Below are positions 29,189 to 47,217 of a stretch of DNA of 52,792 bases, one piece after another. Within the stretch, counting starts at the first letter, position 1, and each line of letters starts with the position of its first letter. Source of the DNA: Folioceros fuciformis (taxonomy: Eukaryota); contig JBNGIO010005929.1 of the NCBI GenBank assembly GCA_049999805.1, positions 82,040 to 134,831 on the forward strand, given 5' to 3'. Both the position numbers and the translations under genes were made by a program. Below the pieces are notes generated by a model that was not told the DNA's origin, searched no databases, and saw only the letters and a program-made list of their open reading frames with translations.

Positions 29189-30042
29189 ATGGCGGGTGGG
29201 CTGATTGTGGAGGATGGCAGAGATGGGAAGGAAATTAGCACGGTGTTGGTGCAGATAGCTATGGAGACAGAGGCGGAGCCGCTGGTGCAGGCTCTGGGGC
29301 TGAAGAAGGTGACACCACTGCCTTTCCCCCACCCGAGCTCCTGGATCCTCTACTCCGGGGAGAGGGAGGGAGTGGCGGTCCACGTGGTGGTGCCCGGCAA
29401 GGACGCTTACCACCAGGTGGACCAGGTGGGCACCGTGGCAGCATCTCTCCTAACCTACGCTTCCTTGCAAGCCTTGAAGCCGGACCTCCTCATCAACGCC
29501 GGCACAGCGGGGGGTTTCAGGGCGCACGGCGCCGNNNNNNNNNNNNNNNNNNNNNNNNNNNNNNNNNNNNNNNNNNNNNNNNNNNNNNNNNNNNNNNNNN
29601 NNNNNNNNNNNNNNNNNNNNNNNNNNNNNNNNNNGCCTCCCAGGCGGGCTTCCATGACCGCAGAATCCCGTTGCCCGGGTTCCAGGCCTACGGGGTGGGC
29701 AAGATTGTGACTCCCGGGACGGTCAATCTGGTGAAGTCCTTGGGATTGAAGGTGGGGGTCTTGTCTACAGGGAATTCCCTTGACATGAGCTCGGAGGACT
29801 ACGAAGTGATTAAGGCTCAGGGGGCTGCCATCAAGGACATGGAGGGGGCGGCTGTTGCCCATACTGCATCCCTGTTGCAGGTGCCCTACATCCTGTTGAA
29901 GGCTGTAACGGATGTTGTGGATGGGGATAGGCCCACGACTGAGGAGTTTTTGGAGAATTTGTCTGTAGCAGCTGAAGCATTGTTGAGGGTCTCTGTTAAG
30001 ATCTTGGACTTTGTGTCAGGAAGGCGGGTGGCTGAGTTGTGA
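29189..30042 (+). CDS. MTN: 5'-methylthioadenosine/S-adenosylhomocysteine nucleosidase; assembly gap inside
   Basis: Motifs IAMETEAEPLV, VDQVGTVAASL, PDLLINAGTAGGF, LSTGNSLD, KDMEGAAVA and KAVTDVVDGDRPTTEEFLENL. Confidence 0.93.
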
Positions 30043-30304
30043 CATCACAAATTCCTGGATTCAGGGTGCAGTTGTAGGGAGGTTCGGTGAAGAAGTGCCT
30101 ACCATTCTCTGCAATCTTGCAATGCAGAGGGCCTTCTGTTGCCTGCTTCCCGCTATTTATCTTCTGTTGTGTGTAACAGGGCAATCAGCCCATGTTTTCA
30201 TGGATTGGACTCCATAGAGTCTCCATGTGAATTTGTATCTACAGCAGGCTGCAAATAGTCTTTATGTATGAATCACAAACTGTGAACATGCTAACTTACA
30301 TCCT

Positions 30305-32253
30305 TCATGTGTGGAGCCTTTCTTGGAAGGAAGACAGGTCGATTTCCTGAGGACCTACCCGCTGCCTGGGGCAGGATTTGAAGTTGGGGCTGAAGTTGTA
30401 AACTTCGGACTGTCTTGTCACACCGAAGTCTGTGGGACTGTTTTGAAACCCTGCTGAATCTGATGATACCTCGTGGTAATCTAGGTTGTTGATCTTCTGG
30501 GCGACTGGAACTGGGTCGCAGCTCAGGTAAGTGGGAGTGTTCTTGTCGATGGGATCGACAAGGGTGAGCGAAACCTGGTTGTTGGTGGGGAGCCCGCTGC
30601 AGGCTCCGGTACGATCTGCAGGGGCACTGCCGCTGGGGTTGCAGTAGATGCCTGACACGGCTCTTTCAGAGCACAGGTTGTTCATCCAGGGGTATCTCTG
30701 CAACCACAAACACGGGTGTACGTGGAGTGCTTGATCAGCATCGCTCTCATCTTGTCACCCTCTCTGGCGGATGAAAGCTTGAACTTGAATCGATCGAATC
30801 CTACCTGAGAGTACTCTGCAGAAGAGTAACTCTGAATCCTTTGCTGCTCCCAGAAGGATCCGGGATCCTGGTCGCAGTTGTTAATGTCGTAGTTCTGGCA
30901 GCTGATCCATCCCGCCAGGCCTTGAGACTGGGAAACGATCAAGCTGGACACGGTGTTGCTGTGTCCCGTGTTGAGCTTCAGTCCGTTAACGTTGTTGTGA
31001 CACACGCCTCCCTCGATGGTGATGCCCGAGCTGGCCCAGTCCAGATAGAGGCAGTGCTCGCCTCCTTCCACATAATTGCAGGACAGATAGTTCCCCGGAT
31101 TGATCCAGTGGGTGGCAAAGTAGATCCCTGTACAACTCACCCACCGCACATCTCAGATCCCACTCCGAAAATTCGACATCTCGCTAGCCAACAACGATGT
31201 ACCCGACTTGCCTGAATTATCCGACAGTTTGTAATCTTGCGGATCTGTGTGGATGTAGTTGTAGGACATGGTATTCAGCATGCAGTCTCCAACATTGTGC
31301 TGACCAAGCCCACACCTGATGGCAGAGAACCCGAAGTCATGGAAGTCGTTGTTGGTGATGGACACACCAACAGCTCCCTGGTAAAGCCAAACTCCCACAG
31401 GGGCCCCAGAAATCTCAGAGTTGGTGACGCTGGTCATGCATTTCCTGAGACGAGGTCCATCCCCGCACATGGCAACATTCACATTAGAAGTGTCCTTTAT
31501 GGTGGACGTGAGCTTCATGCCATCAAGGCTGGATCGCTCAGCCTGAAACATGTCCACACGCCCATCCACAGAGCCCTGCACCAGCATCACGTTTTCCGAC
31601 TTGAATATCACGACTGCCGGGCACACACTGTCGCCATTGTCTGATTGGTACGGCAGCCCCTTGCAGTTAGGAGAGTTGTCGTTCACGCCGTTGGTGAAAT
31701 CCACTCGGCTGATGAGGATGTTGGAAGCTCCCTGCAGCCCAGTTCCACACACACACACAATATCAATGAACGAGTTTAGCTCGCCTTCGATCTCCCTGAC
31801 GAACTCCTTGCATGGAGACTGGTCTTTACTTACCTGGACCGTGAGAGCGGGGCTGTTGTCGGAGGAGGAGATGGTGTAGACAGGTCCATTGTCAGCGGAT
31901 TTCAGAACAGTGCACGAGTAAGCATCCGTGAGGAGCAGGCCTAGCCCAGCCGGCTCCCGACTGGATGAAAACCCATTGTGAAGAACCAAAGTTACAGTCT
32001 CCGTGTTGGGGTGATCTTCACGTGTCTTCACATCCTGAATGCTCCTCACCTGGATCACCACTCCCCCATGCTGGCAGCCTCCAGCTGCCCCAGCGTACAG
32101 GAGTGACACACATGAGAAGGCACGAAGTCTGCTTTCACGACCCGGACGTTGCAACACGCAATGCCTGCTGCAGCACTCACCATGCACCAATACTAGCGTT
32201 GTTGCCAGGAGCAAGCTCCTGACCACATTGTCGATGAAACTGCTTCCCCGCAT
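30305..32253 (-). CDS. Secreted Cys-rich right-handed parallel beta-helix (pectin-lyase-fold) protein, multi-exon
   Basis: N-terminal hydrophobic signal. PbH-type strands VTNSEISG, VSITNNDFHD, DNSGIYF, CLYLDWASSGITIEG and GLKLNTGHSNTV. Spliceable exons, with 5' exon boundaries approximate. Confidence 0.65.
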
Positions 32254-33710
32254 CTGTGACAGCCTTCTCAACGACCCTTCACAATCCTCAGAATTTGCAG
32301 CCTCTGTAGTATGCTAGCCTCATGGACACTGTGACACAGGTCTTCCACACAGGAGCCAACGCTGCCACTGATGACAATCACGGCTTGCCCTTGCAAATCA
32401 GCTCCTGACAGAAGTCTAGCTGATAACAGCACAGCAAAACAGAGTGAACGCAGAAGCTCGAGGAAGATGGCAAGGACTCTGGGGATGGGAGTGTGTGGAA
32501 GGTGTGGCTGTTAAATCCTCTGAGTCTTTCAGGACATGGTCGTGACCTCCATTGAATGCCAGAGTACCCATACGGCAGTTGACAGTTATGTGTTACCCCA
32601 TCCCAGCCCCAAATTCTATGGCGACCTCTCAGCCTCTGCATTCCACACTCCGTTGTACGAAGTATGTGTATCTTCCTGCATCCACATCACACACACACAC
32701 CCAGGTCCATACGTACTCCATATCTAACAACTTCTACCAACATCATCTAATGACCCAGCCTGCATGTACTGCACCATATTAAAGCCATTAGCACCCACTA
32801 ACACGCGAACACTTACCTACTCCACCATCTCACGAGAGCAAGATCTCGATGATGCACGGATGAACGGAAGAGGCATAGAGCCAGCAGGTGAAGGAAATGG
32901 GACCCATTACAGTCTCCCAAAAAGAGGAGAGGCTACCCACATCTCCATGTCTCCAAATTACCAAGGCTGCTTGCAAATGCACATCAGCTGCCATCTACAA
33001 ACATCGATGATCCCAGCTCACAAAGCAGCTGACGCCAGGCAACACATGAAGCTTGGGCTGAGGGTGACCGTAGCTGGAGCTCATGTCAGATGACATGGTA
33101 AAGAGGGCCCTACCAAGGCCTGCACAGTCCACGTCCAAACAGCCAGGCCTGTTTACTGCCAGTTATTATTGGCCTGGCCATGGGCTGCGAATGGGAAGCT
33201 GGTGTCAGAGACTGTAACCTACCAGAGGCATGTGCAGCCCACCTACGGGTCGCCGTCCGCGGCATGTTACAGCTACCGGTACGCGACTGCACCGGGATAC
33301 GTACGCGGCTAGATGTATGTACGTAAGTACATACATACGACACATCGGGCCCGGAGACGAGCCGGCCAGAGACTTATTATCACCGACTTTTTTAGGTCGA
33401 GCGGAGTGGGGAGATGACGTGAGCAGAACGCGGTGGGAGAAGCCCGTACCGGGCCGGCTGCATGTGCAAGAAGACCTGTCACAGGAGCAACTGCGATGGT
33501 GGCCAGGGCGGACTGCGATGCCAAGGATGCGCGCATGGAGCGCCAAGAAACCCTACCGGGCCCTGGCGTGGCTATGGCGGGAAAGCTCTGCGCTGGCGTT
33601 GGGCTTTGATTGAGACTGGCTGCGCTGGGAGCGGGACGGAGACAGCCGAGAGCTTCTGGAGGTCAGGACAGGGAGGGAGAGGACGGGGCAGGACAGGGCA
33701 AGTGGAAGTC

Positions 33711-33755
33711 TGGTCAGGTCAGGTCAGGTCAGGGCTGGCCAGGCCAGGCCAGGCT
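33711..33755 (+). repeat. (GGTCA)n/(GGCCA)n pentamer microsatellite
   Basis: Visible tandem 5-mers upstream of the Myb/SANT gene. Confidence 0.7.
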
Positions 33756-34106
33756 ATGGCACGGCTGGAGGGGACGGGACTGTGGAGGGAGATGAGCAGA
33801 TTTGTTTACAGGCCTCCATCTGCGTGATTCCTGCTCTGTGATGTGCTGTCAGTCAGTCAGTGCTTGCTCTCTTTGCGGGGAGATGCGGAATTGGCAGTCC
33901 AGAATTTATGTGAGGAACGTAGAAGGATTGTGGATTCCGAGGTTAATGAGAGCCAGAATGTGGATGTCCGGGATCGTGTTTGCTGGTTGAGTGTGCGAAT
34001 GATGTCAGGTGGACGAGCTCAGACCAGAGTGAAGTACTTGTAGGAGGTAGTTTGAATTGAAGAAGAAGAGGGAGTGGGATCTGGAGTCGGAGAGTTTGTT
34101 TGGGAG

Positions 34107-35137
34107 ATGGATTCGGCACAGGTGGTGGTGTCCGGTGCCGGTTCCGGGGTGTCCAGTCTCGGCAATGGGCAGTTGCAGCCGGGTTTGATCGCGGAGGAGC
34201 ATCCGACGCTGGGGCTCGGGTTGCAGCAGCGGGTGCTGGTGCAGGCCCAGCATACCCAGCACACGACGAAGAGGAAGGCTTCGAGGGCGGATGATGTTCA
34301 GGTATTTTGTTTCGTGACGCGGACGAGTAGAGTGTGGCTTGTGTGGGATGTTGGTTGCTTGAATGTATTCGTGTGTGAGGGCGCGCGCGCGGGTGCAAAC
34401 TGGTCGGAGGTTGAGGAGGTTGATTTTTGGTGTCGATGGGTGAGTTGGGGCAGTGGGGGGAGGTGGCCACCAACTTCTTCATCGATGCGTTCGAGGAGCG
34501 GTACGTAGAGATCAACAGAGGGAATTTTAGAGGAAAGGATTGGGAAAATCTGGCTACTCTGGTGAGCGCCAGGTTCGCTGGGGAGGGAAAGAGCTTCTCC
34601 GCTTTCCAGTGTAAGCATAAGTTGGAGAATTTGAAGAAGAAGTACAGGAGGGAGAAGGCGGCGATGATGGCGGCGGGGACCGTGAGCTCGGGGTGGCAGT
34701 GGTACAACAGGATGAATCACCTTTTCGGGCACGCGCCAGCCAAGGTGTCGGGCATAGCGGGAGCTGTGGACAACGGAGATCAAGAGGAGGTTGAGAGGCC
34801 TAGGAAGGATGAGCTGATGATGGACAGGTTGACGGATGCAATGGATATGCAGCGCCCGGACGAGCCTGACGAAGGGACCAAGGCCCAGTCGCAGGGAGAT
34901 GAGCCTGAGATGTGTGAAGCAACCCCCGAGGGAAGCCCTGGGGCGGCCGGGAAGAGGGCTGTTAAGAAGAAGAAACGAAGGAGCTCCATGTTTAACCCTG
35001 CCAAGGACTTGGCTGCCAGCTTCAGGGAATACGCGCAGACAATGGCTGAAGTGGAAAGGGAGAAAATGCAGATTTTGCGGGCCCTCCTGGCCCATCACAA
35101 CATCATCGTTCAACCCAGCACGAACTCAGAATCTTGA
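34107..35137 (+). CDS. Myb/SANT-like (trihelix-type) DNA-binding protein, PIF/Harbinger ORF1-type, 2 exons
   Basis: Exon 1 34107-34301, phase-0 intron to 34453. Motifs W..ATNFFIDAFEE..RGNFRGKDWENLA..QCKHKLENLKKKYRREK..WQWYNRM. C-terminal coiled coil. Confidence 0.85.
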
Positions 35138-35188
35138 CAAAGTGGGTGCCCAGGCAGCGCTGGTCCGGTTCGCGTTAACCTAGATCCT

Positions 35189-36463
35189 TCACACACCAGC
35201 AGCTGTTCTTCGAGCTATCCAGTCTTCAAAGAGCGCTACCCTGTTGGCAGAGCCTTGCAGCTGCTGCCCGCTATTCTCACCATCTTGGCCACGGACCACC
35301 TCCTCGTGTAGGCTGTTGGGAACTGGATCTTCAACCTGATCGGGATTAACCTCCCCTGCCATAATGCAGTAATTGTGTAGTACACAGCAAGACACAGCCA
35401 CTCGGGGCGCATACCGGAGATCTGTGTTGCAGTTGTTCAGGATCTGCCACCTGCTCTTGAGCATACCAAAAGCAGTCTGTATTTTATTATGAGACTTCCA
35501 AAGCTGCTTGTTGAAGGCATCCTCTGTAGAACTTCGCGCGTTGAAGGGTTTCACGAGCCATGTTCTCAAAGGATATGCGGCATCCCCTACCAAGTAAGGT
35601 CGAATTTTCCGCCCTCTTACGCTTACGCTGTGGTCACTGAACAACCCCCTGTCTTCCATCTTCGTCCACAAGCTGGTCACCCTCAGATTGCTTGCGTCAT
35701 GAGTAGCCCCGGGCATCTTGCAAGCTACATCCCAGAAAAAGTGCTCCGAATCGCACACTCCTTGCAGGAGAATGGAAGGAAATCCATGCCTCGACCTGTA
35801 CTCCACAGGATTCCGAGCCCTACAAGGCTTTCTAAACAGCCGCACGTGGGTGCCATCAATCGCACCGGACATACCTGGCAGCTCCGTGAGCTGCGAAAAC
35901 CTAGCCATGATTTGCACCAGCCTCTCCCCAGCAGGCACGGATATGTATCGCGAATAGAGCTTATCTCGGTCGGTGAGAATGGCGATCACGATTCTGGTAT
36001 ACTTGGAGATGGTGGACGCCCCGATTCCATACATCTCCGACATCTCGCTAGGAGACTTCCCCGATCCCAGCCGGTGGAGCACCACGGCCACAGCCTTGTC
36101 CTTCTCAACAGGTTGTCTCACGAACGTAGCCGCATGTTCGATAAAGGGAGACAGCAAAGCCACCAGCTTAGTGAAGCTCCTGAACCCCATCCTGAAATGC
36201 CTCCTCCACACAGCATCCCGCTCTTCGTCCCCGACATTGGAGACCTGCCTCTTGATGGTCGCCCACCACAGATTCCTGGTGGACGGCGACCACCAGAGTC
36301 TCTCCCCCTCCTCCGATTGGGCAACCAGAGTGTAGGCGGCCATCAATCTCATAATCCCATCCCTGCCTGCTGGTGGCTCCAACAAAGCAAGGAGGAGCAG
36401 GAAGGGGTGCACCTGGCCATTGTGTGTCAAGGCCCACAGCACTGCACTTTCGAAGTAATCCAT
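35189..36463 (-). CDS. PIF/Harbinger transposase-derived nuclease (HARBI1/ALP1-like), intronless
   Basis: Motifs WRRHFRM..F, HTH VAVVLHRLGSG..YGIGASTISK, GAIDGTHV, SILLQGVCD, PGATHDA, YLVGDAAYPL..LVKPF, AFGMLKSRWQIL and CCVLHNYC. Confidence 0.93.
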   Translation of the reverse strand: MDYFESAVLWALTHNGQVHPFLLLLALLEPPAGRDGIMRLMAAYTLVAQSEEGERLWWSPSTRNLWWATIKRQVSNVGDEERDAVWRRHFRMGFRSFTKLVALLSPFIEHAATFVRQPVEKDKAVAVVLHRLGSGKSPSEMSEMYGIGASTISKYTRIVIAILTDRDKLYSRYISVPAGERLVQIMARFSQLTELPGMSGAIDGTHVRLFRKPCRARNPVEYRSRHGFPSILLQGVCDSEHFFWDVACKMPGATHDASNLRVTSLWTKMEDRGLFSDHSVSVRGRKIRPYLVGDAAYPLRTWLVKPFNARSSTEDAFNKQLWKSHNKIQTAFGMLKSRWQILNNCNTDLRYAPRVAVSCCVLHNYCIMAGEVNPDQVEDPVPNSLHEEVVRGQDGENSGQQLQGSANRVALFEDWIARRTAAGV

Positions 36464-36520
36464 TTCCTTCTCTTGCAGATTTTCAATACTGGAATCATGG
36501 AGCACTGCACGTAGCGCTCG

Positions 36521-39500
36521 TCAGTAAGGCATACAAACATCCGCCCACGGCACCATTGCCGTCATCTTGCGAGTGAACTCGCGTGAGAGGGGAGAAAAGA
36601 GTTTTATAGCCCTAGTGTAAGAACCTGATGCATCGCCTATGGGTGGTGCGTATTTGCGTTCTGTGTAGGTCAGTGCTCTGGGACAGTGTGTAAAGACGTG
36701 GATTTTCACAAGCATTCTGCGGCTTGGCAGCTTCTCGCTGTGCGCAGATACATCTTCCTTTCTATGAGACACATGTACTTTTTGTTTGCAGTTGGAAAGA
36801 GGAGTACATGCTCTAGCCTTACTGGACTCTTGGGATACTGCAATTCTACACCCGACCATAAAACTATGCACCTGGCCGTCCATGTTAGTCCACCAGCTCT
36901 GACCAGGCTGTTGCGATGCCCTGATTCCAGTTCTCTTGGCTTGCATCCGGTGTGCCTGCTCCCACATCTGGGCGCCGGCGTAAATGTTGGACATCAACAC
37001 AAACGCTGCGGCATCGTTCTCGTCTAGCTGCACAGCTTGGTGGAAAGCATGTTGTCCCACCTCGACGTTGCTCCACTTTCGACAAGCACCCAAGAGAGTG
37101 TGCCAGACTGCAGCATCAGGGAGGACACGCATTGTGTTAATGAAAGCTAATGCCTCGTGCAGTCGACCTGCACGCCCAAGGAGATCCACCATGCATGTGT
37201 AATGCTCCACTGTGGGAGTGATTCCGTGGTTTGCGTGCATAGCCTCGAAATACTGTCTCCCCTTGTTCACTAGGCCCGCATGACTACACACTGTTAGCAC
37301 ACTGAGGAACGTGATTCCGACTGGCTTTATGCCATCGTCTGTCATTCTTTGAAACAAGTCAAACACCAATTCGCTGTCTCCTTGACTGCTGTATCCTGCG
37401 ATCAGCGCACTCCAAGCAAATACGTCTCTTTCATGCAACGCATCAAACACCTGCTGTGCATCAACCATGCTCCCTGACTTTCCATACATGTTTATCAAGC
37501 TGCCGGCTAGAGACGCATAAGCTTGAAGCCCCAGTTCTTGAATCTGGGCATGTATCTGCCTTCCCAGATTCAAAGCTGCCACATTTGCACATGCCTGCAG
37601 GAGGAACGCGAAGGTCACCGTATCGGGTAAAGCAATGCCTTCTTCTTGCATATCCCTGTACAGACTAAGGACTTTCTGGTCCATGCCTTGCTGAGTATAC
37701 CCTGCTATCATAGCGGTCCACGTCACGACATCTCTTGATTTAAGTCTGTCAAACACTCTCTGAGCGTCTTCCAAGTTACCACACTTGGCATACATATTCA
37801 CCAAACCGCTGGCTACAAATGCATCACCTTCATGTCCTTGCTCTCGGATCTGCGCATGAAGCTGTATGCCCATCCCCAAACCTTGGCTGCACACACTTGC
37901 ACATGCTTGAAGGAGACACACAAATGTCACAGAATCAGGTTTGGCGATTCCTTCTTCTTGCATAGTACTGTAGAGACGAAGGGCTTCCTGGCCCATAGCC
38001 TGCTGAGAATACCCTGATATCATGGCATTCCACGTCCCCACATCTCTTTTTGGACCAAGTCCATCAAACACCCTTCGAGAATCTTCCAGGCTTCCACACT
38101 TTGCATACATGTTGACCAGACTGTTGGCTACAACAACATCACCTTCGTATCCTTGTCTTCTGATTTGTGCATGGAGCTGCTTGCCCTTCTCCAAAGCTGG
38201 GATGCCGACATTCCCGAATGCCTGCAGGAGGGACACAAATGTTAAAGAATCGGGTACTGTAACACCTCCTTCTTGCATAGAACTGTAGAGGCGAAGAACC
38301 TCCTGCACCCTGCCCTGTTGGGCATAGCCTGCTAGGATGGCAGTCCACGTCACCTCATTCTTCTCACCGAGTCCCTTAAACACAATCTCAGCATCTTCCA
38401 AGCTGCCACACTTCACATACATGTTTACCAAACTGCTGGCTACATACACATCAGCTTGATGTCCTCCAACTTTAATCTGTGCATGCAATTTCCTCCCCTT
38501 CTCCAATGCCTGGGTGCCCAAACTGGCGCATGCCTGAAGGAGGCACGCGAATGTGACGGAATTGGGTACTGTGATGCCTTCCTCTTGCATGGCAGTGTAC
38601 ATACAAAGTGCTTGCTGGCCCATGCCCTGCCGGGAATACCCTGATATCATGGCATTCCATGTCACCACTTCTCTGTGAACAAGGCCATCAAAAACCCTTC
38701 GAGCGTCCTCCAAACTTCCACATCTGGCATACATGTTTACCAGACTATTCGCTACAAGTGCATTATCCTCTTCTCCTCGTTCTCTAATTTGCCTATGGAG
38801 CTCCTTTCCCTTCTCCAAAGCTGGGGACCCCACAGTTGCACATGCCTGGAAGAGGCACACAAATGTGACGCAGTCAGGCGCCACCCCACCATGTTTCCGC
38901 ATATCACCGTAGAGATTGAGGGCTTCGAGGCCCATGCCCTTCTGGGAATAACCTGATATCATGGCATTCCATGTCACCGCATCTTTCCGACTGAGACCAT
39001 CAAATACTTTTCGAGCCGCTTCCAAGCTACCACACTTGGCATACATGTCCACCAGGCAGTTACAGACAAACAAATCAGGCTCAAGCCCACTGGCCAACAG
39101 ATCAGCATGCAGCAGCTGCCCAGTTTTCAGGTCTACTCCCCTTGCACAAGCCTGAAGGGCGGCCACAAAGACATGGCCATCTGGCTTCACATTCGACCTA
39201 CGCATCCGATGATAGAGTTGTATGGCCCGCTTGTCTTCTCCGTGCTTAACATGCGCAGAGATTATGGCCGACCACGTGAATGCATCTGGTTTTGCAACCG
39301 TTGTCAAGACATCCATAGCATCCTGCAACCTGCCGTGACAGGCATACATTCGTAGGATGTGGTTGCAGAGGAACGTATCCGACTGGTACCCCAGTTTCAC
39401 CGTGAAAGCATGGATCCGGCGACCCAGAACAAGATCCTGCTCCACCACAGATCTCTTTAGCACAGTGTAAAACAGGGTTTTCGAAACGCAACAGTCCTTC

Positions 39501-39862
39501 TGAATTAGAACTCCCAAAGCCTCAACAGCCTCAACTAGATGACCATGATAGCACATGTTGCTCACAGTGTCAGGCGACACAAGATGAAACAGGGCAAAAC
39601 TCTGAGCAATATCCATTCCCCTACCCATATCCACATTCAGAACATCGAGCTCTGCAGACTGTCGCCACAAGAGGCCCTGGTCGCTGGAAGATCCGTCTTG
39701 AGGTGAACATCCACTTGGACGAGGTAGCTTCCTCCTTCCTGCAACTCCTTTCTTTGCCAAAGATGTACAATTCCTTAGGTTCATCGGACGAGCAGGAGGT
39801 GTTCCTATCAATCTCCAGACACCCATGGCTCCAAGTGCCACGCACCCGGCCCATGTCAGCAA
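36521..39862 (-). CDS. PLS-class PPR protein with E domains, WW-type PG box and degenerate DYW remnant (organellar RNA-editing factor family); start uncertain
   Basis: Repeated P-L-S triplets (VTWNAMISGYSQ / PDxVTFVCLLQACA / NSLVNMYAKCGSLEDA). Then HYTCMVDLLGRAG, WHTLLGACRKW, PGQSWWT and HSEKL. Confidence 0.95.
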   Translation of the reverse strand: MLTWAGCVALGAMGVWRLIGTPPARPMNLRNCTSLAKKGVAGRRKLPRPSGCSPQDGSSSDQGLLWRQSAELDVLNVDMGRGMDIAQSFALFHLVSPDTVSNMCYHGHLVEAVEALGVLIQKDCCVSKTLFYTVLKRSVVEQDLVLGRRIHAFTVKLGYQSDTFLCNHILRMYACHGRLQDAMDVLTTVAKPDAFTWSAIISAHVKHGEDKRAIQLYHRMRRSNVKPDGHVFVAALQACARGVDLKTGQLLHADLLASGLEPDLFVCNCLVDMYAKCGSLEAARKVFDGLSRKDAVTWNAMISGYSQKGMGLEALNLYGDMRKHGGVAPDCVTFVCLFQACATVGSPALEKGKELHRQIRERGEEDNALVANSLVNMYARCGSLEDARRVFDGLVHREVVTWNAMISGYSRQGMGQQALCMYTAMQEEGITVPNSVTFACLLQACASLGTQALEKGRKLHAQIKVGGHQADVYVASSLVNMYVKCGSLEDAEIVFKGLGEKNEVTWTAILAGYAQQGRVQEVLRLYSSMQEGGVTVPDSLTFVSLLQAFGNVGIPALEKGKQLHAQIRRQGYEGDVVVANSLVNMYAKCGSLEDSRRVFDGLGPKRDVGTWNAMISGYSQQAMGQEALRLYSTMQEEGIAKPDSVTFVCLLQACASVCSQGLGMGIQLHAQIREQGHEGDAFVASGLVNMYAKCGNLEDAQRVFDRLKSRDVVTWTAMIAGYTQQGMDQKVLSLYRDMQEEGIALPDTVTFAFLLQACANVAALNLGRQIHAQIQELGLQAYASLAGSLINMYGKSGSMVDAQQVFDALHERDVFAWSALIAGYSSQGDSELVFDLFQRMTDDGIKPVGITFLSVLTVCSHAGLVNKGRQYFEAMHANHGITPTVEHYTCMVDLLGRAGRLHEALAFINTMRVLPDAAVWHTLLGACRKWSNVEVGQHAFHQAVQLDENDAAAFVLMSNIYAGAQMWEQAHRMQAKRTGIRASQQPGQSWWTNMDGQVHSFMVGCRIAVSQESSKARACTPLSNCKQKVHVSHRKEDVSAHSEKLPSRRMLVKIHVFTHCPRALTYTERKYAPPIGDASGSYTRAIKLFSPLSREFTRKMTAMVPWADVCMPY

Positions 39863-41838
39863 TAGGCAGCGGCCCGTATAGATGAGCGTCAGGTCACATG
39901 TGGAGCAGCAGTAGACCTGGCTAACGTGACCATGTCGCTGCTAAGAATGCCTTGGCCCTTGCCCTTGGCAAGAGAACCCTTACTGGAGGGCGCTGCAAGT
40001 ATCTTATTGACCATATCCTTGTTATACGAAATAGGACTTCCGGCATATGGGTCACATTGTCCATGATTCTTAAGTATCCTGCGATGGCAACGAACACGTC
40101 CTTCTCGTACTACTAGTGATCCACAATATCTCGGAAGTTTCCTGGAGCTGGACAATCTATTCCCACACCTTGTGGTTTTCAAATCAGCGATGGCCACTCA
40201 TCCCTTGCCAAAGTGAAGTCGGTTATACAACCAAAAAACATAGAATTGAGAAAGAATTCTATAAAATATAGTAGTACAAACTTTTTAAGAGCGAGCAAAT
40301 AAAGAAACAGGAGACTTCATTATACAAGAAGCAAGAAACCCATATACCCCCTTAACAGAGAGGGACAACCCATTGAATGGATTAGCCCCACAATCAAGCT
40401 TGCCAAAACTACCAACTACTCTGGAATGTGAAAGGGTATGGTGGGAGAATGTGTCGAAAGATCTAAAAAAGGGTTTGCCTACCACCAAAGTCTAAGAAGT
40501 TGTTGCCCCAAATCCTATAGAAAACAACTACTCAAGAAAGGGAAGACTAGCCCCAATCTTGTTGTGACAGGCCCTAGCGCATCCTTTACAAACTTGATCA
40601 AACCCTTACCCATGCTCCATGAGTCTCCATGAATATGTGGTCATCCTACATAGGAGAGTGTTTGCTGACCTTGCTTGTTGCAGAACCTTCCATCGCCCAT
40701 CATGAAGGGTAACTTAGAATAACATGTTCGCATATGGTGTTTGGAGTTGGAGAAGTAACAACAACATTCACAACAAAAACCTTATGCCCCCTTATCAAAA
40801 ATAGGTCAACCCAATGGGAAAACCCATTAAACTAGGTGTAGGGGCAAACCTTGAATAGAAACCTCACCTTCCTTAGCAATAGTCTGAATATGATATCTTG
40901 GACAATGTCGTCTAGCAAAACGATCCCTATCCATACGACATGAAGCCAAGTGTGTCCCAAGGTCAACAAGAGGGAGCCCATGGCCCCACAACTGTAAGTT
41001 GAAAGGGAGCAGGCCAAAGGATGGACGAACCCTACATGAAAATACATTGGCGATGGAGAATGTCAGTGGTGTAATGCAGAATGCCTAAATGCTAGAACGA
41101 GTAAGAAGCCAAGCTCTACTCCCTTCCCAAAGCAAGAGTGTAGTCAAGCCCAAGTGGGATTAGGAATTGAAGAATCTAGGTTTGAGGAGGGCCAATTGCA
41201 CGTGACAATCTTGTTTCTCTAATAGCAATGCCTTTAGCTCCTAAAGCCTAGCCTAGCCTTAAAGCCTAGCAAGATTCTCAAGACCAAACCCTACACTTAT
41301 TTATTTTGACCTTCAAATTGAAGTGAGAGCTGCACAATGAAGAAACCCAGCCTCAAGAATACATATATCATCTGCTACAAATGGATATACACATTCCCAC
41401 ACAACAAAGGCATGTGAAGATAAGGCCCTTAAATATGCCAAGACAAATAGAGCACCTCCTTAAATCATCTTTTCTAGTATCTTTCAATGAGTCTAGCACC
41501 AAAACCCCTTCAACCGAATGCTCATGTACATAACTAGTTGAGGATGGAAAGAGATCCATGAAAAGAGCAAACAATGGGAATTAGGCTAGCCAATTGCCCA
41601 CCTATATTTTTTAGCTCATCAAATATGGTAGATTGTAAAATAGTATGCCATGCACTCTCTAAATTGACTCAAGGGGCAACCCAAACTAAATGGGTGTCAA
41701 AAGATGCATCCTCTCTCTTCGTGAAAAAAAAAGATGCATCCTCTCCAAAAACCACTATCTCAAAATCCGCTAGAGTAGCAATCCCGAATTAGTGACAGCA
41801 AAGATGGGCCTAGATCTAACGTTCGGAACTAGATACTA

Positions 41839-42071
41839 ATACTACGGCTTGTAGACCCCAAGAACACCTCACTAATGACAATAGGGAACACCCTTAAGTA
41901 CGATTCTACTTGTCCCTACAACCTAATGTGAGAAGGGGTCTCCCCACATCTGAAACTATATACTCATACTACGGCCAGTCGTCCTCAAGAACACCTCCCC
42001 AACGACAATAGGGAACACCCCTTGAGTACGCTTCTACTTGTCCCTAGAGCCTAATGCAAGGAGGTCTCCCC
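41839..42071. repeat. Imperfect tandem duplication, ~127 bp period
   Basis: ATACTACGGC..CAAGAACACCTC..GACAATAGGGAACACCC..TTCTACTTGTCCCTA..GGTCTCCCC occurs twice. Confidence 0.75.
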
Positions 42072-45270: not shown

Positions 45271-47217
45271 ATGACTGCGAGTGAGGAGCAGATTGGCGAG
45301 TTAGCAATGGTGACTACGAGTGAGGAACAGAGTGGCGAGTCAGCAATTGTGACTCCCAATGGCATGTCAGGAATTGTGACCACCATCTATGACGATGAGG
45401 AATTTGAGGGAGATTTTTTTGCCTCAAGCGATCTGAAGAAATGGATTCAGAGGCAAGCAGAAGTTGAAGAATCCGCCCAGAATGCCGCGTGGCAAGCTAG
45501 AGCACAAAATTTGATGAATGGCTGGCTGGATGGTACACAAGAGGTAGGGCATAAGGCAGCAAAAGTGCTTTTCACAGGTACCCGAGATGAGAATGACATT
45601 TCAAAGTCGGGACGACTTAGCCCCTTGGTGCGGGTCTGGTTTTACATGAATGATTGGGTGGATTTAGATAGGGATCGTTTGAATGCTCTTGTGGCCACCA
45701 GCACACAAGATTCTCCAGTGAAGTTGGTTAATGATAGGTATAGTGCTTTACGTGGCACTTTTGGGTGGGCGGTTCGTCTGCAAGCTGTGGATCAAGATAA
45801 GCAGCTTACGTATGCTACTGGGTTCCCCATCTCCAAAACGGTTCTCATGTCCGCACTTCATGCTCGCATCAACATGGCAAGGCAAAGTTATAGTGCTTGG
45901 AGGGCATTGCCCCAAGAAGCTCCCTCTTATAGTTTTCACGAACCCGGGAGGCCCAAGTATTACTTAACAGGCATGAAGTGGCCAGAGTCCAACCTCGGTA
46001 CCATGTTGGACCCTATTACGAATGTTGAATATGATCTAACTCACTTAGCTAGTGTGGATGCCGCATCTTGGAGAATCACTAAGTCATCTAAGGGTTTTGA
46101 AGAGTTATCCTCGAAGCAATCTCTGCTGCATTCGTTTCACAATTTTTTTGTCCCAATGTGTGTTAGTATGGAATCTTGCAGCATGGCTTGCTGGATGCCT
46201 CAATACTCTGTGGTGTCCAACTTGAGAGGTTTTATCCAAGATATTCCACATATGCCAAATAATCAGTTACAAAGATTCTTTATGGACCATTGCAGTCTTA
46301 TACATGAAGAGATGCAACATACTATGACTTCTATGGGCAAATCTTTGAAGGAGATGGCACGAGGTGATGCTAGATGTCGAGCACATATTGTTGAGTGGCT
46401 ATCACTACTTACTAGGAGATTAATGGAAGCTACGAAGGATATTAGAGAAGGATCTGTGTATATAGGGATTGGAAAAGTTTTAGAGTACAACGGGAACATG
46501 CTTGCACACTCAGTAAGTACATTCATAGGTTCATCCGGTGCTCCATTGTCGCTGATTGAAGGGCCAGTTGGTTGTTACATTGGAGTTCAGAATGCTCCAG
46601 CAGCGGCATCGATGACTACAGACAAAAGATATAGTATATTACCTAGTCACAATCTTTGTACAAGTGCGGAAAACCCCCTTATTGGCCTTTTCTATTTTGA
46701 TAGTATGTTGGATGAGGTGCCACACCCGGATAGTGATGAGTGGAAAGGACGCTTGGAAGTCTTTTATCGTTTTCTAGAATATCGTTTGCCCTCTATCTTG
46801 ATAGAAAACAGATGCCATATATGGACCTCTCAACAAACTACGTGGATTGATCGACTCCTGCAACACATCGCACAAGACGGGACCTTGTTACAAAACTTCA
46901 ATGCAATTGGGAGCGACTCAGATACAGTTAGCCATGCTGACATATTAGAAGGATTATTGACAGCAGGCGTTCTGAGCATCTTGAGTAAGTGTCCTCGTAT
47001 TCTCGAAAGGCTCTTTTTTCAAGAGGATTGTGGTCCAGAAGTCTTACAGGTACATAACCTTGGATCTTTTGCTGCTTTTTGTGAACGCCATTTTGTTAAG
47101 ATCTTTGACTTTGAACTTAATGACTTGGGTCTACCCTTCAAGATTTCGACCTTGCCAAAGCTGTTGAAAATCATGAAGGTGTGTTCCCGGAGAGCGGATT
47201 TTATAGATAGTTTTTAG
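45271..47217 (+). CDS. Orphan 648-aa intronless protein with a trypsin-like serine protease domain
   Basis: ATGFPISKTVLMSALH (His), VDAASWRI (Asp) and LAHSVSTFIGSSGAPL..IGV (Ser) follow the Trypsin_2 motif pattern. The ORF is uninterrupted. Confidence 0.65.
   Translation: MTASEEQIGELAMVTTSEEQSGESAIVTPNGMSGIVTTIYDDEEFEGDFFASSDLKKWIQRQAEVEESAQNAAWQARAQNLMNGWLDGTQEVGHKAAKVLFTGTRDENDISKSGRLSPLVRVWFYMNDWVDLDRDRLNALVATSTQDSPVKLVNDRYSALRGTFGWAVRLQAVDQDKQLTYATGFPISKTVLMSALHARINMARQSYSAWRALPQEAPSYSFHEPGRPKYYLTGMKWPESNLGTMLDPITNVEYDLTHLASVDAASWRITKSSKGFEELSSKQSLLHSFHNFFVPMCVSMESCSMACWMPQYSVVSNLRGFIQDIPHMPNNQLQRFFMDHCSLIHEEMQHTMTSMGKSLKEMARGDARCRAHIVEWLSLLTRRLMEATKDIREGSVYIGIGKVLEYNGNMLAHSVSTFIGSSGAPLSLIEGPVGCYIGVQNAPAAASMTTDKRYSILPSHNLCTSAENPLIGLFYFDSMLDEVPHPDSDEWKGRLEVFYRFLEYRLPSILIENRCHIWTSQQTTWIDRLLQHIAQDGTLLQNFNAIGSDSDTVSHADILEGLLTAGVLSILSKCPRILERLFFQEDCGPEVLQVHNLGSFAAFCERHFVKIFDFELNDLGLPFKISTLPKLLKIMKVCSRRADFIDSF

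Follow-up and report, generated by a model that had tools for sequence, protein, structure and literature searches.

What has become of a transposon when its two genes persist intact and side by side and its ends can no longer be found? This question is raised by a locus in the 52,792-nucleotide stretch of Folioceros fuciformis DNA analysed here (contig JBNGIO010005929.1; the whole stretch is hereafter termed the window), in which a Myb/SANT-like gene on the + strand and a DDE_Tnp_4 nuclease gene on the - strand lie tail to tail, with a stop-to-stop gap of 51 bp (35138-35188). Judging from their sequences, the two genes descend from the two genes of one PIF/Harbinger insertion. As for their present state, we favor, at a probability of roughly 0.55, an immobilised and co-domesticated Harbinger pair kept for a host function, in which a DNA-binding Myb protein would act with a cleavage-impaired, nuclease-derived partner.

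The Myb gene consists of two coding exons. Its coding sequence starts at 34107, with the first in-frame ATG that follows a stop, which confirms the start given in an earlier reading made from the letters of this DNA (the sequence-only reading). The first coding exon (34107..34301, + strand; 65 codons) encodes a low-complexity N-terminus with KRK and ends with CAG|GT, and is followed by a phase 0, GT..AG intron of 152 nt (34302..34453). The second coding exon (34454..35137, including the stop codon) encodes the Myb/SANT-like domain, an acidic linker, a KKKKRR basic patch and a C-terminal helix region, as judged from Pfam, the basic clusters and the colinearity with an Adiantum protein, P0005. 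The open reading frames (ORFs) at 34107-34508 and 34436-35137, both on the + strand, are two parts of this single spliced gene, the frame being kept over the intron. The nuclease-derived gene (35189..36463, - strand) has no intron and encodes 424 aa from an ATG at 36461-36463. In Pfam, its product matched DDE_Tnp_4 with an E value of 3.3e-18 (66.2 bits against a cut-off of 24.8) and Plant_tran with an E value of 2.3e-12, and that of the Myb gene matched Myb_DNA-bind_4 with an E value of 1e-12 (48.7 bits; cut-off 27) and MADF with an E value of 6.2e-5. Both frames are intact (424 aa for the nuclease and 65+227 codons for the Myb), and altogether about 2.2 kb of coding sequence of the pair is devoid of a stop or a frameshift. 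Two further ORFs lie antisense to the genes, one of 265 aa at 34298-35095 (-) and the other of 341 aa at 35489-36514 (+), and most likely result from the high G+C content of the coding sequence.

The pair sits between a spliced host gene (30000-32632) and a gene for a pentatricopeptide repeat (PPR) protein (36521-39826). The stop codon of the PPR gene (36521-36523) is on the same strand as the nuclease gene and leaves a spacer of 57 bp upstream of the nuclease ATG (36464..36520), in which there is no room for a normal element end. The sequence-only reading had described an intact tail-to-tail pair with a 51-bp gap, derived from both genes of one Harbinger element and packed tightly between host genes. 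The ORFs and Pfam bore out its coordinates and motifs, Myb_DNA-bind_4 and DDE_Tnp_4 were found side by side, and the two neighbours proved to be the spliced gene and the PPR gene. Its distance of about 58 bp between the nuclease ATG and the PPR stop is to be corrected to 57 bp, and the closeness of the two stands.

The main departure of the nuclease from its relatives lies in the catalytic triad. The first catalytic Asp, D203 in GAIDGTH (codon 35855..35857), and the second, D294 in VGDAAYP (codon 35582..35584), are kept, and the position of the catalytic Glu is occupied by Gln, Q329 in KIQTAFG (codon CAG, 35477..35479; all three codons on the - strand). We aligned the nuclease with 155 homologues (149 best representatives and six matches of a word-indexed search) by MAFFT with fast settings. 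The two Asp positions were occupied by D in 142 and 141 of the 155 homologues, respectively, and the column corresponding to residue 329 comprised 132 E, eight gaps, five D, four K, two G, two L, one A, one R and no Q. Likewise, D203 and D294 were invariant in an alignment of 15 sequences, 14 of which possessed E329, and the window nuclease alone deviated. The two alignments thus agree with the sequence-only reading, which had noticed the two kept Asp residues and the Gln in place of Glu. In place of the complete D-D-E triad of an active Harbinger transposon, D-D-Q was found. Of 41 columns with a conservation of 80% or more in the 155 homologues, the nuclease retains 36, and the five deviating ones are F145Y, S263T, P278H, R325H and E329Q. 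Both R325H and E329Q fall in the catalytic helix, and R325, which is His in the window nuclease, is 90% conserved among the homologues. An AlphaFold2 model of the nuclease, which was of moderate quality (mean pLDDT, the predicted local distance difference test, of 66.5) and which we used for secondary structure only, has D203 where a strand ends and Q329 within a helix of residues 312-338, as expected of an RNase H-like DDE fold. A change from Glu to Gln abolishes catalysis in DDE enzymes, including the activity of DDE transposases. From E329Q, together with R325H in the same helix, we infer that the nuclease is probably catalytically dead or cleavage-impaired. Kept conserved columns beside a changed active site would be the pattern of a retained fold with an altered catalytic site. 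The letters of the Q329 codon are identical in a contig of the public run X1 (see below), bearing in mind that X1 and the assembly may share one source.

The hallmarks of element ends are absent from the pair. When the segments 32500-34106 and 36464-36560 were compared for a terminal inverted repeat (TIR), the best inverted match had a score of 8, which was reached by 182 of 200 dinucleotide shuffles; likewise, a TIR flanked by a 3-bp TWA target site duplication (TSD), the mark of an active transposon, was not found at the pair. The sequence-only reading had seen neither TIR nor TWA TSD, and this is upheld, as the best match between the flanks is at the level of chance and the only candidate pair, I2, was rejected (see below). 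No second copy of the Myb gene or the nuclease gene was detected by tblastn within the 52.8-kb window (next-best E values of 2.4 and 0.74). The other ORFs of at least 110 aa in the window yielded host-gene families only and no transposon-protein domain. These families were P4-ATPase, IPP transferase, RhoGAP, histidine phosphatase, pantothenate kinase (Fumble), PNP_UDP and RING. We also considered an element insertion that split the PPR gene. This was rejected, since the PPR tail is of full length and a six-frame reading of 32600-34110 revealed no DYW remnant left of the pair.

Both genes are covered by contigs of X1. This run consists of contigs and bears the label 'RNA?' as a guess, and neither strand, transcript ends nor expression level can be read from them. 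A single contig over the neighbouring gene at 30000-32632 (- strand) omits four stretches of 107, 84, 102 and 96 nt, namely the four short introns of that gene, all of which have CT..AC ends on the + strand; therefore, X1 behaves as RNA. The run contains 97% of the sampled words of 33600-37000. One contig (record 2) covers 33677-34301 with no difference and joins on at 34451/34454 across the 152-nt GT..AG intron of the Myb gene (joint 34298>34451, cut +3), which gives the 5' untranslated part of this gene a minimum extent of 33677..34106 (+ strand). Another contig (record 3; 2636 nt) is colinear with 34451-37086 with no difference, and spans Myb exon 2, the 51-bp spacer between the convergent genes (35138..35188), the whole ungapped nuclease gene and the 3' end of the PPR gene. 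With the Myb splice joint and both genes covered without a mismatch, the pair set out in the sequence-only reading stands up to this check against RNA. The nuclease sequence in X1 may come either from its own transcript or from read-through of the PPR gene. X1 has no cover at 32807-33608 and 40025-42000, and two further runs, X2 and X3, cover parts of the PPR gene only; these were not used as evidence. The loss of hallmarks combined with expression, by which domesticated genes have been recognised (PMC9710019), was found here as the lack of TIR and TSD together with spliced and colinear X1 contigs.

The Myb protein retains two of the three canonical tryptophans. The first W is the first residue encoded by exon 2, and the second W lies 29 residues further on. 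The third position, in QCKHKLENL, is occupied by Leu in the window Myb and by M or I in the element-borne relatives of the metagenome loci described below; this position is the one we take to correspond to the third tryptophan, having mapped it from the Pfam consensus and the alignment with those relatives. Basic clusters resembling a nuclear localisation signal (NLS), KKKKRR at residue 236 and KRK at residue 55, occur in the Myb protein, and none was found in the nuclease-derived protein. Helix 3, the W-x-Y motif, the basic patch and the next helix are colinear with the Myb-derived N-terminus of Adiantum P0005, the gene model of which is a Myb fused to a nuclease. The similarity between the two is low (E value of 4e-4 in a single comparison, 21% identity over 166 residues). 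A word-indexed homology search with the Myb protein yielded 307 candidates and none at an E value of 1e-3 or lower, and a search of ESM Atlas retrieved generic animal Myb_DNA-bind_4 clusters only (best score of 0.93), which added nothing beyond Pfam.

We then consider whether the two proteins may bind each other. The complex prediction for Myb and nuclease received a score of 0.59, compared with 0.00 for the best of three controls; the runs agreed in at least 32% of the contacts and the partner pLDDT was at least 58. Of 78 solved complexes, 51 reached the mark of this test, as did two of 108 mismatched pairs; with scores of 0.60 or lower, it was reached by only five of the 78 solved complexes as well as by all four passing mismatches (of 180). 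The prediction thus lends weak support to an interaction of Myb and nuclease. A sequence search of the PDB with both proteins gave no match at an E value of 1 or lower; the score is not a memory of a known structure because no similar complex has been solved. It gives the same answer for a transposon pair as for a domesticated one.

Relatives of the nuclease are numerous and remote. A word-indexed search gave 55 matches, the best being 41% identical, and an exhaustive search of 1.84 billion representatives gave 11326 matches at E values of 1e-3 or lower, among which 152 were at 1e-30 or lower and the best were 39-45% identical. No relative of more than 45% identity was found in the protein collections or metagenome contigs searched. 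When eight proteins of the window were looked up exactly in a collection of 15 billion, none of the eight was present, so close kin of the pair may be unsampled. That the pair is lineage-specific, as the sequence-only reading had supposed, cannot be concluded from the lack of close relatives, the organism and perhaps its kin being unsampled. Among the relatives, Riccia fluitans P0056 (with R. sorocarpa P0205 in the same 90% cluster) possesses D-D-E, and its residues 1-422 are colinear with residues 1-421 of the window nuclease. P0056 and P0205 appear as one well-conserved D-D-E gene of two Riccia species, on contigs of 55.98 and 55.96 Mb, and both species hold several more divergent copies (P0062, P0066, P0069 and P0080); Riccia may thus have one host gene beside an element family. 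Selaginella P0057 is named 'ALP1-like', a name that is applied to several families at NCBI, and its triad is G-D-A, and that of P0059 is D-R-E. Further relatives are several Adiantum and additional Riccia proteins, which look multi-copy, and Picea sitchensis P0224 (in the cluster of P0064). Blocks at the N-terminus and the C-terminus are common to the window nuclease and this group of relatives.

In a FastTree phylogeny of 145 rows, the window nuclease fell inside a starred plant clade of 27 rows. Both a quick tree (45 rows) and a careful tree (35 rows) placed it in the basal polytomy of the plant clade with supports of 93/91, and its end branch was as long as 0.81 changes per column in the careful tree. 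These small trees left out most angiosperm members and kept seven (quick) and three (careful) distant representatives; a gecko protein named HARBI1 (P0017) was in the outgroup of both. The trees were built without authentic ALP1 or HDP1 sequences.

To see what surrounds such genes elsewhere, we scanned metagenome contigs and obtained 80 loci, comprising the closest 22 (L001-L022; several only about 2 kb long) and 58 more distant ones. A Myb-domain profile was built from the window sequence and those of L025, L032, L036, L046 and L049. Of the 58 more distant loci, 27 proved to contain a Myb ORF by this profile (26 at E values below 1e-5), as against none of the 22 closest, plant-like loci. In all 27, Myb ORF and nuclease gene occupied opposite strands, with the Myb ORF mostly downstream, convergent as in the window. 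The Myb ORF was upstream, that is divergent, in L067-L069 and L073, with which L025, L032, L036, L040, L046, L048 and L049 were compared. The superfamily has both layouts, convergent and divergent. Pfam found no Myb among 145 flank ORFs of L001, L003, L006, L008, L010, L012, L015, L018, L022 and L071; instead, the flank ORFs of these 10 loci were of host genes such as methionine synthase, PPR, kinases, RRM and zf-U1. L001 (50-1018) and L002 (381-1349) encode a protein akin to the Selaginella 'ALP1-like' one, in which none of the three catalytic residues is left (G-N-G). In L001, this nuclease-derived gene is followed, about 3 kb downstream, by one for methionine synthase, and it looks like a stand-alone domesticated nuclease gene. 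By their sequences, the plant clade around the window nuclease repeatedly yielded stand-alone, catalytically altered host genes (G-D-A, G-N-G, D-R-E and, in the At3g19120-like family treated below, D-D-V), and the window locus appears unusual among its nearest relatives in retaining the partner gene.

If the two genes were co-domesticated, a single PIF/Harbinger insertion would have been immobilised and kept by the host as ordinary genes. The Myb/SANT-like protein, which has the sole NLS-like basic patch of the pair, would bind DNA, and its C-terminal part may bind the nuclease-derived protein, so that the Myb would bring a nuclease-derived scaffold to the nucleus and to DNA. The D-D-Q partner would no longer cut or join DNA and may have become a protein-binding platform, probably for chromatin or transcription factors. 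A link to Polycomb repressive complex 2 (PRC2) or to the increased DNA methylation (IDM) complex would be drawn from analogy only. The co-opted pair of the sequence-only reading stands as a proposal; what was observed are the domain matches, D-D-Q in the nuclease, the loss of element ends, open frames in both genes, and transcripts of which that of the Myb is spliced.

The rival that survives best, and that we hold to be possible but rather doubtful, is a young relic, namely a lone Harbinger insertion that lost its ends by deletion or local rearrangement, acquired E329Q, is still transcribed from its own or neighbouring promoters without host selection, and has intact frames for lack of time. 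A series of observations speaks for such a relic or otherwise weighs against co-domestication. The locus retains the full convergent two-gene architecture of an element, as seen in the 27 of 58 distant loci, and none of the 22 closest loci holds a Myb ORF. The G+C content at third codon positions (GC3) reaches 0.80 and 0.72 in the two Myb exons and, for the nuclease gene, 0.64, which exceeds the values of eight neighbouring coding stretches (0.37-0.62), as in foreign DNA yet to adopt the base make-up of its host. No orthologue and no membership of a conserved host family emerged in the collections and trees searched, and the nuclease shares its basal polytomy with the multi-copy, element-like lineages of Adiantum and Riccia. 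The residues at the tryptophan positions of the Myb are as in element-borne relatives. The Q requires one base change and could be a fresh lesion, two deletions suffice to remove the ends even if the genes are under no selection, transposons too can be transcribed and spliced, and the interaction score amounts to weak support. On the other hand, a relic would have lost both ends though the whole 2.2 kb of coding sequence escaped any stop or frameshift, and R325H joins E329Q in the catalytic helix, yet 36 of the 41 conserved columns are kept. Furthermore, with an end branch of 0.81 and no closer relative among 1.84 billion representatives, no recently active source family is visible; this argument is a weak one because the organism itself is unsampled.

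Alternatively, the pair could be an ancient host module, in which the nuclease is a fast-evolving orthologue or sister of one of six conserved families and the Myb partner is still adjacent. Six nuclease-derived clades are described for Arabidopsis in the consulted parts of two studies, namely HDP1 (At1g72270), ALP1 (At3g63270), At3g55350, At4g29780, At5g12010 and At3g19120 (PMC5339849, PMC7282668). The nearest conserved host family in our trees was the At3g19120-like one, a label that goes back to one source's name for one Hibiscus protein. A search with Picea P0064 retrieved 790 matches to this family, of which the best 120 were listed. P0064 is 54% identical to its counterpart in Marchantia, and the family (proteins P0232-P0349) is about 50% identical between liverworts and seed plants. 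In an alignment of 124 sequences, which includes the window nuclease and five added relatives, 81 (mostly of eudicots) had D-D-V and 33 (of gymnosperms, liverworts and some asterids) had D-D-E. When the window nuclease was joined to all 14 At3g19120-like rows, the tree was 6.1 log-likelihood units better than the free quick tree and was not rejected by the approximately unbiased (AU) test (p value of 0.63); together with the end-to-end colinearity with Riccia P0056 and the N-terminal and C-terminal blocks shared across the group, this favors an ancient module. In contrast, placement within the At3g19120-like crown, which extends from liverworts to angiosperms, was rejected with an AU p value of 0.00028 and a log-likelihood lower by 77.5, noting that this group was named after the tree had been seen. 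The careful tree set the window nuclease outside a starred group of 17 rows (96/93), which comprises the At3g19120-like family, Riccia P0056/P0205, Selaginella P0057 with locus L001, P0059, P0001 and P0083. The nuclease is 27-34% identical to the At3g19120-like family, against the 54% between Picea P0064 and Marchantia within that family, and the published ALP1 and ALP2 genes have no adjacent partner, as far as the consulted parts of the reports tell (PMC4671723, PMC7282668). The trees leave several placements for the nuclease, among them that as the sister to the whole At3g19120-like family, and we consider an ancient module quite improbable.

Least of all do we expect a still-mobile, autonomous Harbinger whose short or imperfect ends were missed and whose Q329 is tolerated or complemented in trans. 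The two genes are indeed intact as well as expressed, and the inverted pair I2 (32884-32900 / 36460-36476; 17 nt, 88%) would bound a 3.6-kb unit of typical size, but I2 was rejected as element ends, its score being reached in 14 of 200 shuffles. It runs into the start codon of the nuclease, has its mismatches at the outer ends, and is bordered by CCA and AGA in place of a TWA duplication. Besides, the gap between the ATG and the PPR stop measures only 57 bp, and the catalytic Glu is present in 132 of the 155 homologues and Gln in none.

Concerning the neighbouring genes, the PPR gene (36521-39826, - strand) encodes a PLS-type protein of 1101 aa with an E motif at residues 918-978. Its tail is about as long as a DYW domain and keeps 'HSEKL', without the C-terminal zinc and DYW motifs, and is presumably a degenerate or variant DYW domain. 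At 36817-39222, X1 provided 2218 contigs with at least 90% likeness, nearly all on the PPR repeats and many with repeat-to-repeat joints, which suggests that the PPR family of the organism is very large and expanded recently. The product of the gene at 30000-32632 had a weak match to Beta_helix only (E value of 0.008). The segment 40000-52792 has a lower G+C content (0.34 to 0.47) and few long ORFs, including one of 648 aa (45271-47217) without a Pfam match. This segment is presumably what the sequence-only reading had called a 'decayed TE island', and its ORFs of at least 110 aa contain no transposon-protein domain.

Among the systems known, the pair would work most like HDP1/HDP2, the closest analogy we see. 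As far as the consulted text tells, HDP1 and HDP2 are a Harbinger-derived pair of Arabidopsis whose proteins interact with each other and belong to the IDM histone acetyltransferase complex, and they resemble the window pair in combining a nuclease-derived protein of incomplete DDE with a Myb/SANT/trihelix partner, in the absence of TIR and TSD; HDP2 keeps its DNA-binding tryptophans (PMC5339849). In HDP2, W19 and W48 are described as essential for DNA binding and W71 as less so (PMC5339849); the first two are 29 residues apart, as in the window Myb, whereas the third position is Leu in the latter. The HDP clades are described there as older than angiosperm diversification (PMC5339849), and the window pair is likened to them by features, not by phylogeny; membership of the IDM complex is theirs, and the window pair is known from its sequence. 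ALP1 and ALP2, the co-domesticated Harbinger nuclease and Myb of Arabidopsis that serve as a PRC2 accessory pair, are reported in the portions available to be single-copy and immobile, and angiosperm ALP1 has likewise lost catalytic residues (D-G-A) (PMC4671723, PMC7282668). They differ in that their genes are unlinked to a partner, as opposed to the 51 bp in the window, and in that the genes of angiosperm ALP1 and At3g55350 have a 5' intron, which the window nuclease gene lacks (PMC4671723, PMC7282668). By sequence, the pair looks more like HDP1/HDP2, or an element-borne pair, than ALP1/ALP2, because the window Myb keeps two of the three tryptophans that all land-plant ALP2 are stated to lack (PMC7282668).

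The arrangement itself finds its counterpart in insects. Adjacent co-domesticated PIF pairs are presented in the part of the study consulted, namely DPLG7/DPM7, APLG1/APM1 (97 bp apart), APLG2/APM2 and LPLG2/LPM2, in which both genes of one insertion are still adjacent as host genes without TIR and TSD, and often one partner only has a predicted NLS, as in the window pair (PMC9710019). These pairs are of animals, and their domestication is backed by synteny between distant species and dN/dS (ratios of nonsynonymous to synonymous substitution rates) of 0.04 to 0.18 (PMC9710019), whereas the pair described here is known from one locus. The At3g19120-like genes are intronless, are flanked by host genes (in L006, L010, L012 and L018), and have the catalytic Glu replaced by V in the 81 of 124 aligned sequences noted above; they differ from the window nuclease, which is outside their crown, in being stand-alone with no Myb ORF at their loci. 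The vertebrate HARBI1 and NAIF1 are an interacting pair of a Harbinger-derived nuclease and a Myb-like protein, and differ in being an independent, animal domestication with unlinked genes; HARBI1 keeps the DDE triad. DNA binding of NAIF1 is mentioned in the consulted part of the HDP study (PMC5339849).

Thus, linked co-domesticated pairs are already known in insects (PMC9710019), and the plant pairs published are unlinked, as far as the consulted parts of the reports go. No linked domesticated Harbinger pair of a non-seed plant appeared in the titles and abstracts found on domesticated Harbinger in bryophytes or Selaginella. The boldest proposal, which we regard as unlikely, is that the window holds the first plant pair of a Harbinger nuclease and a Myb that was domesticated in place and is still linked, convergent and 51 bp apart, with the nuclease maybe sister to the At3g19120-like family, i.e., a living intermediate. 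If true, it would represent the stage predicted by the step-by-step model of co-domestication in insects, and the one that ALP1/ALP2 and HDP1/HDP2 must have passed before their partners separated and DNA binding by the Myb was lost or altered.

No other transposons have been tamed as pairs as often as Harbinger elements, examples being ALP1/ALP2, HDP1/HDP2, HARBI1/NAIF1 and the insect pairs. Since the known plant partners are old and unlinked, the early steps of taming are hidden. The locus would be an ordinary one if it were a mere relic. If domesticated, it would make an early step visible in a land plant outside the angiosperm models, in which only the catalytic helix is altered and the Myb is still DNA-binding in looks, and it would offer a simple system for asking what such a pair binds and recruits.

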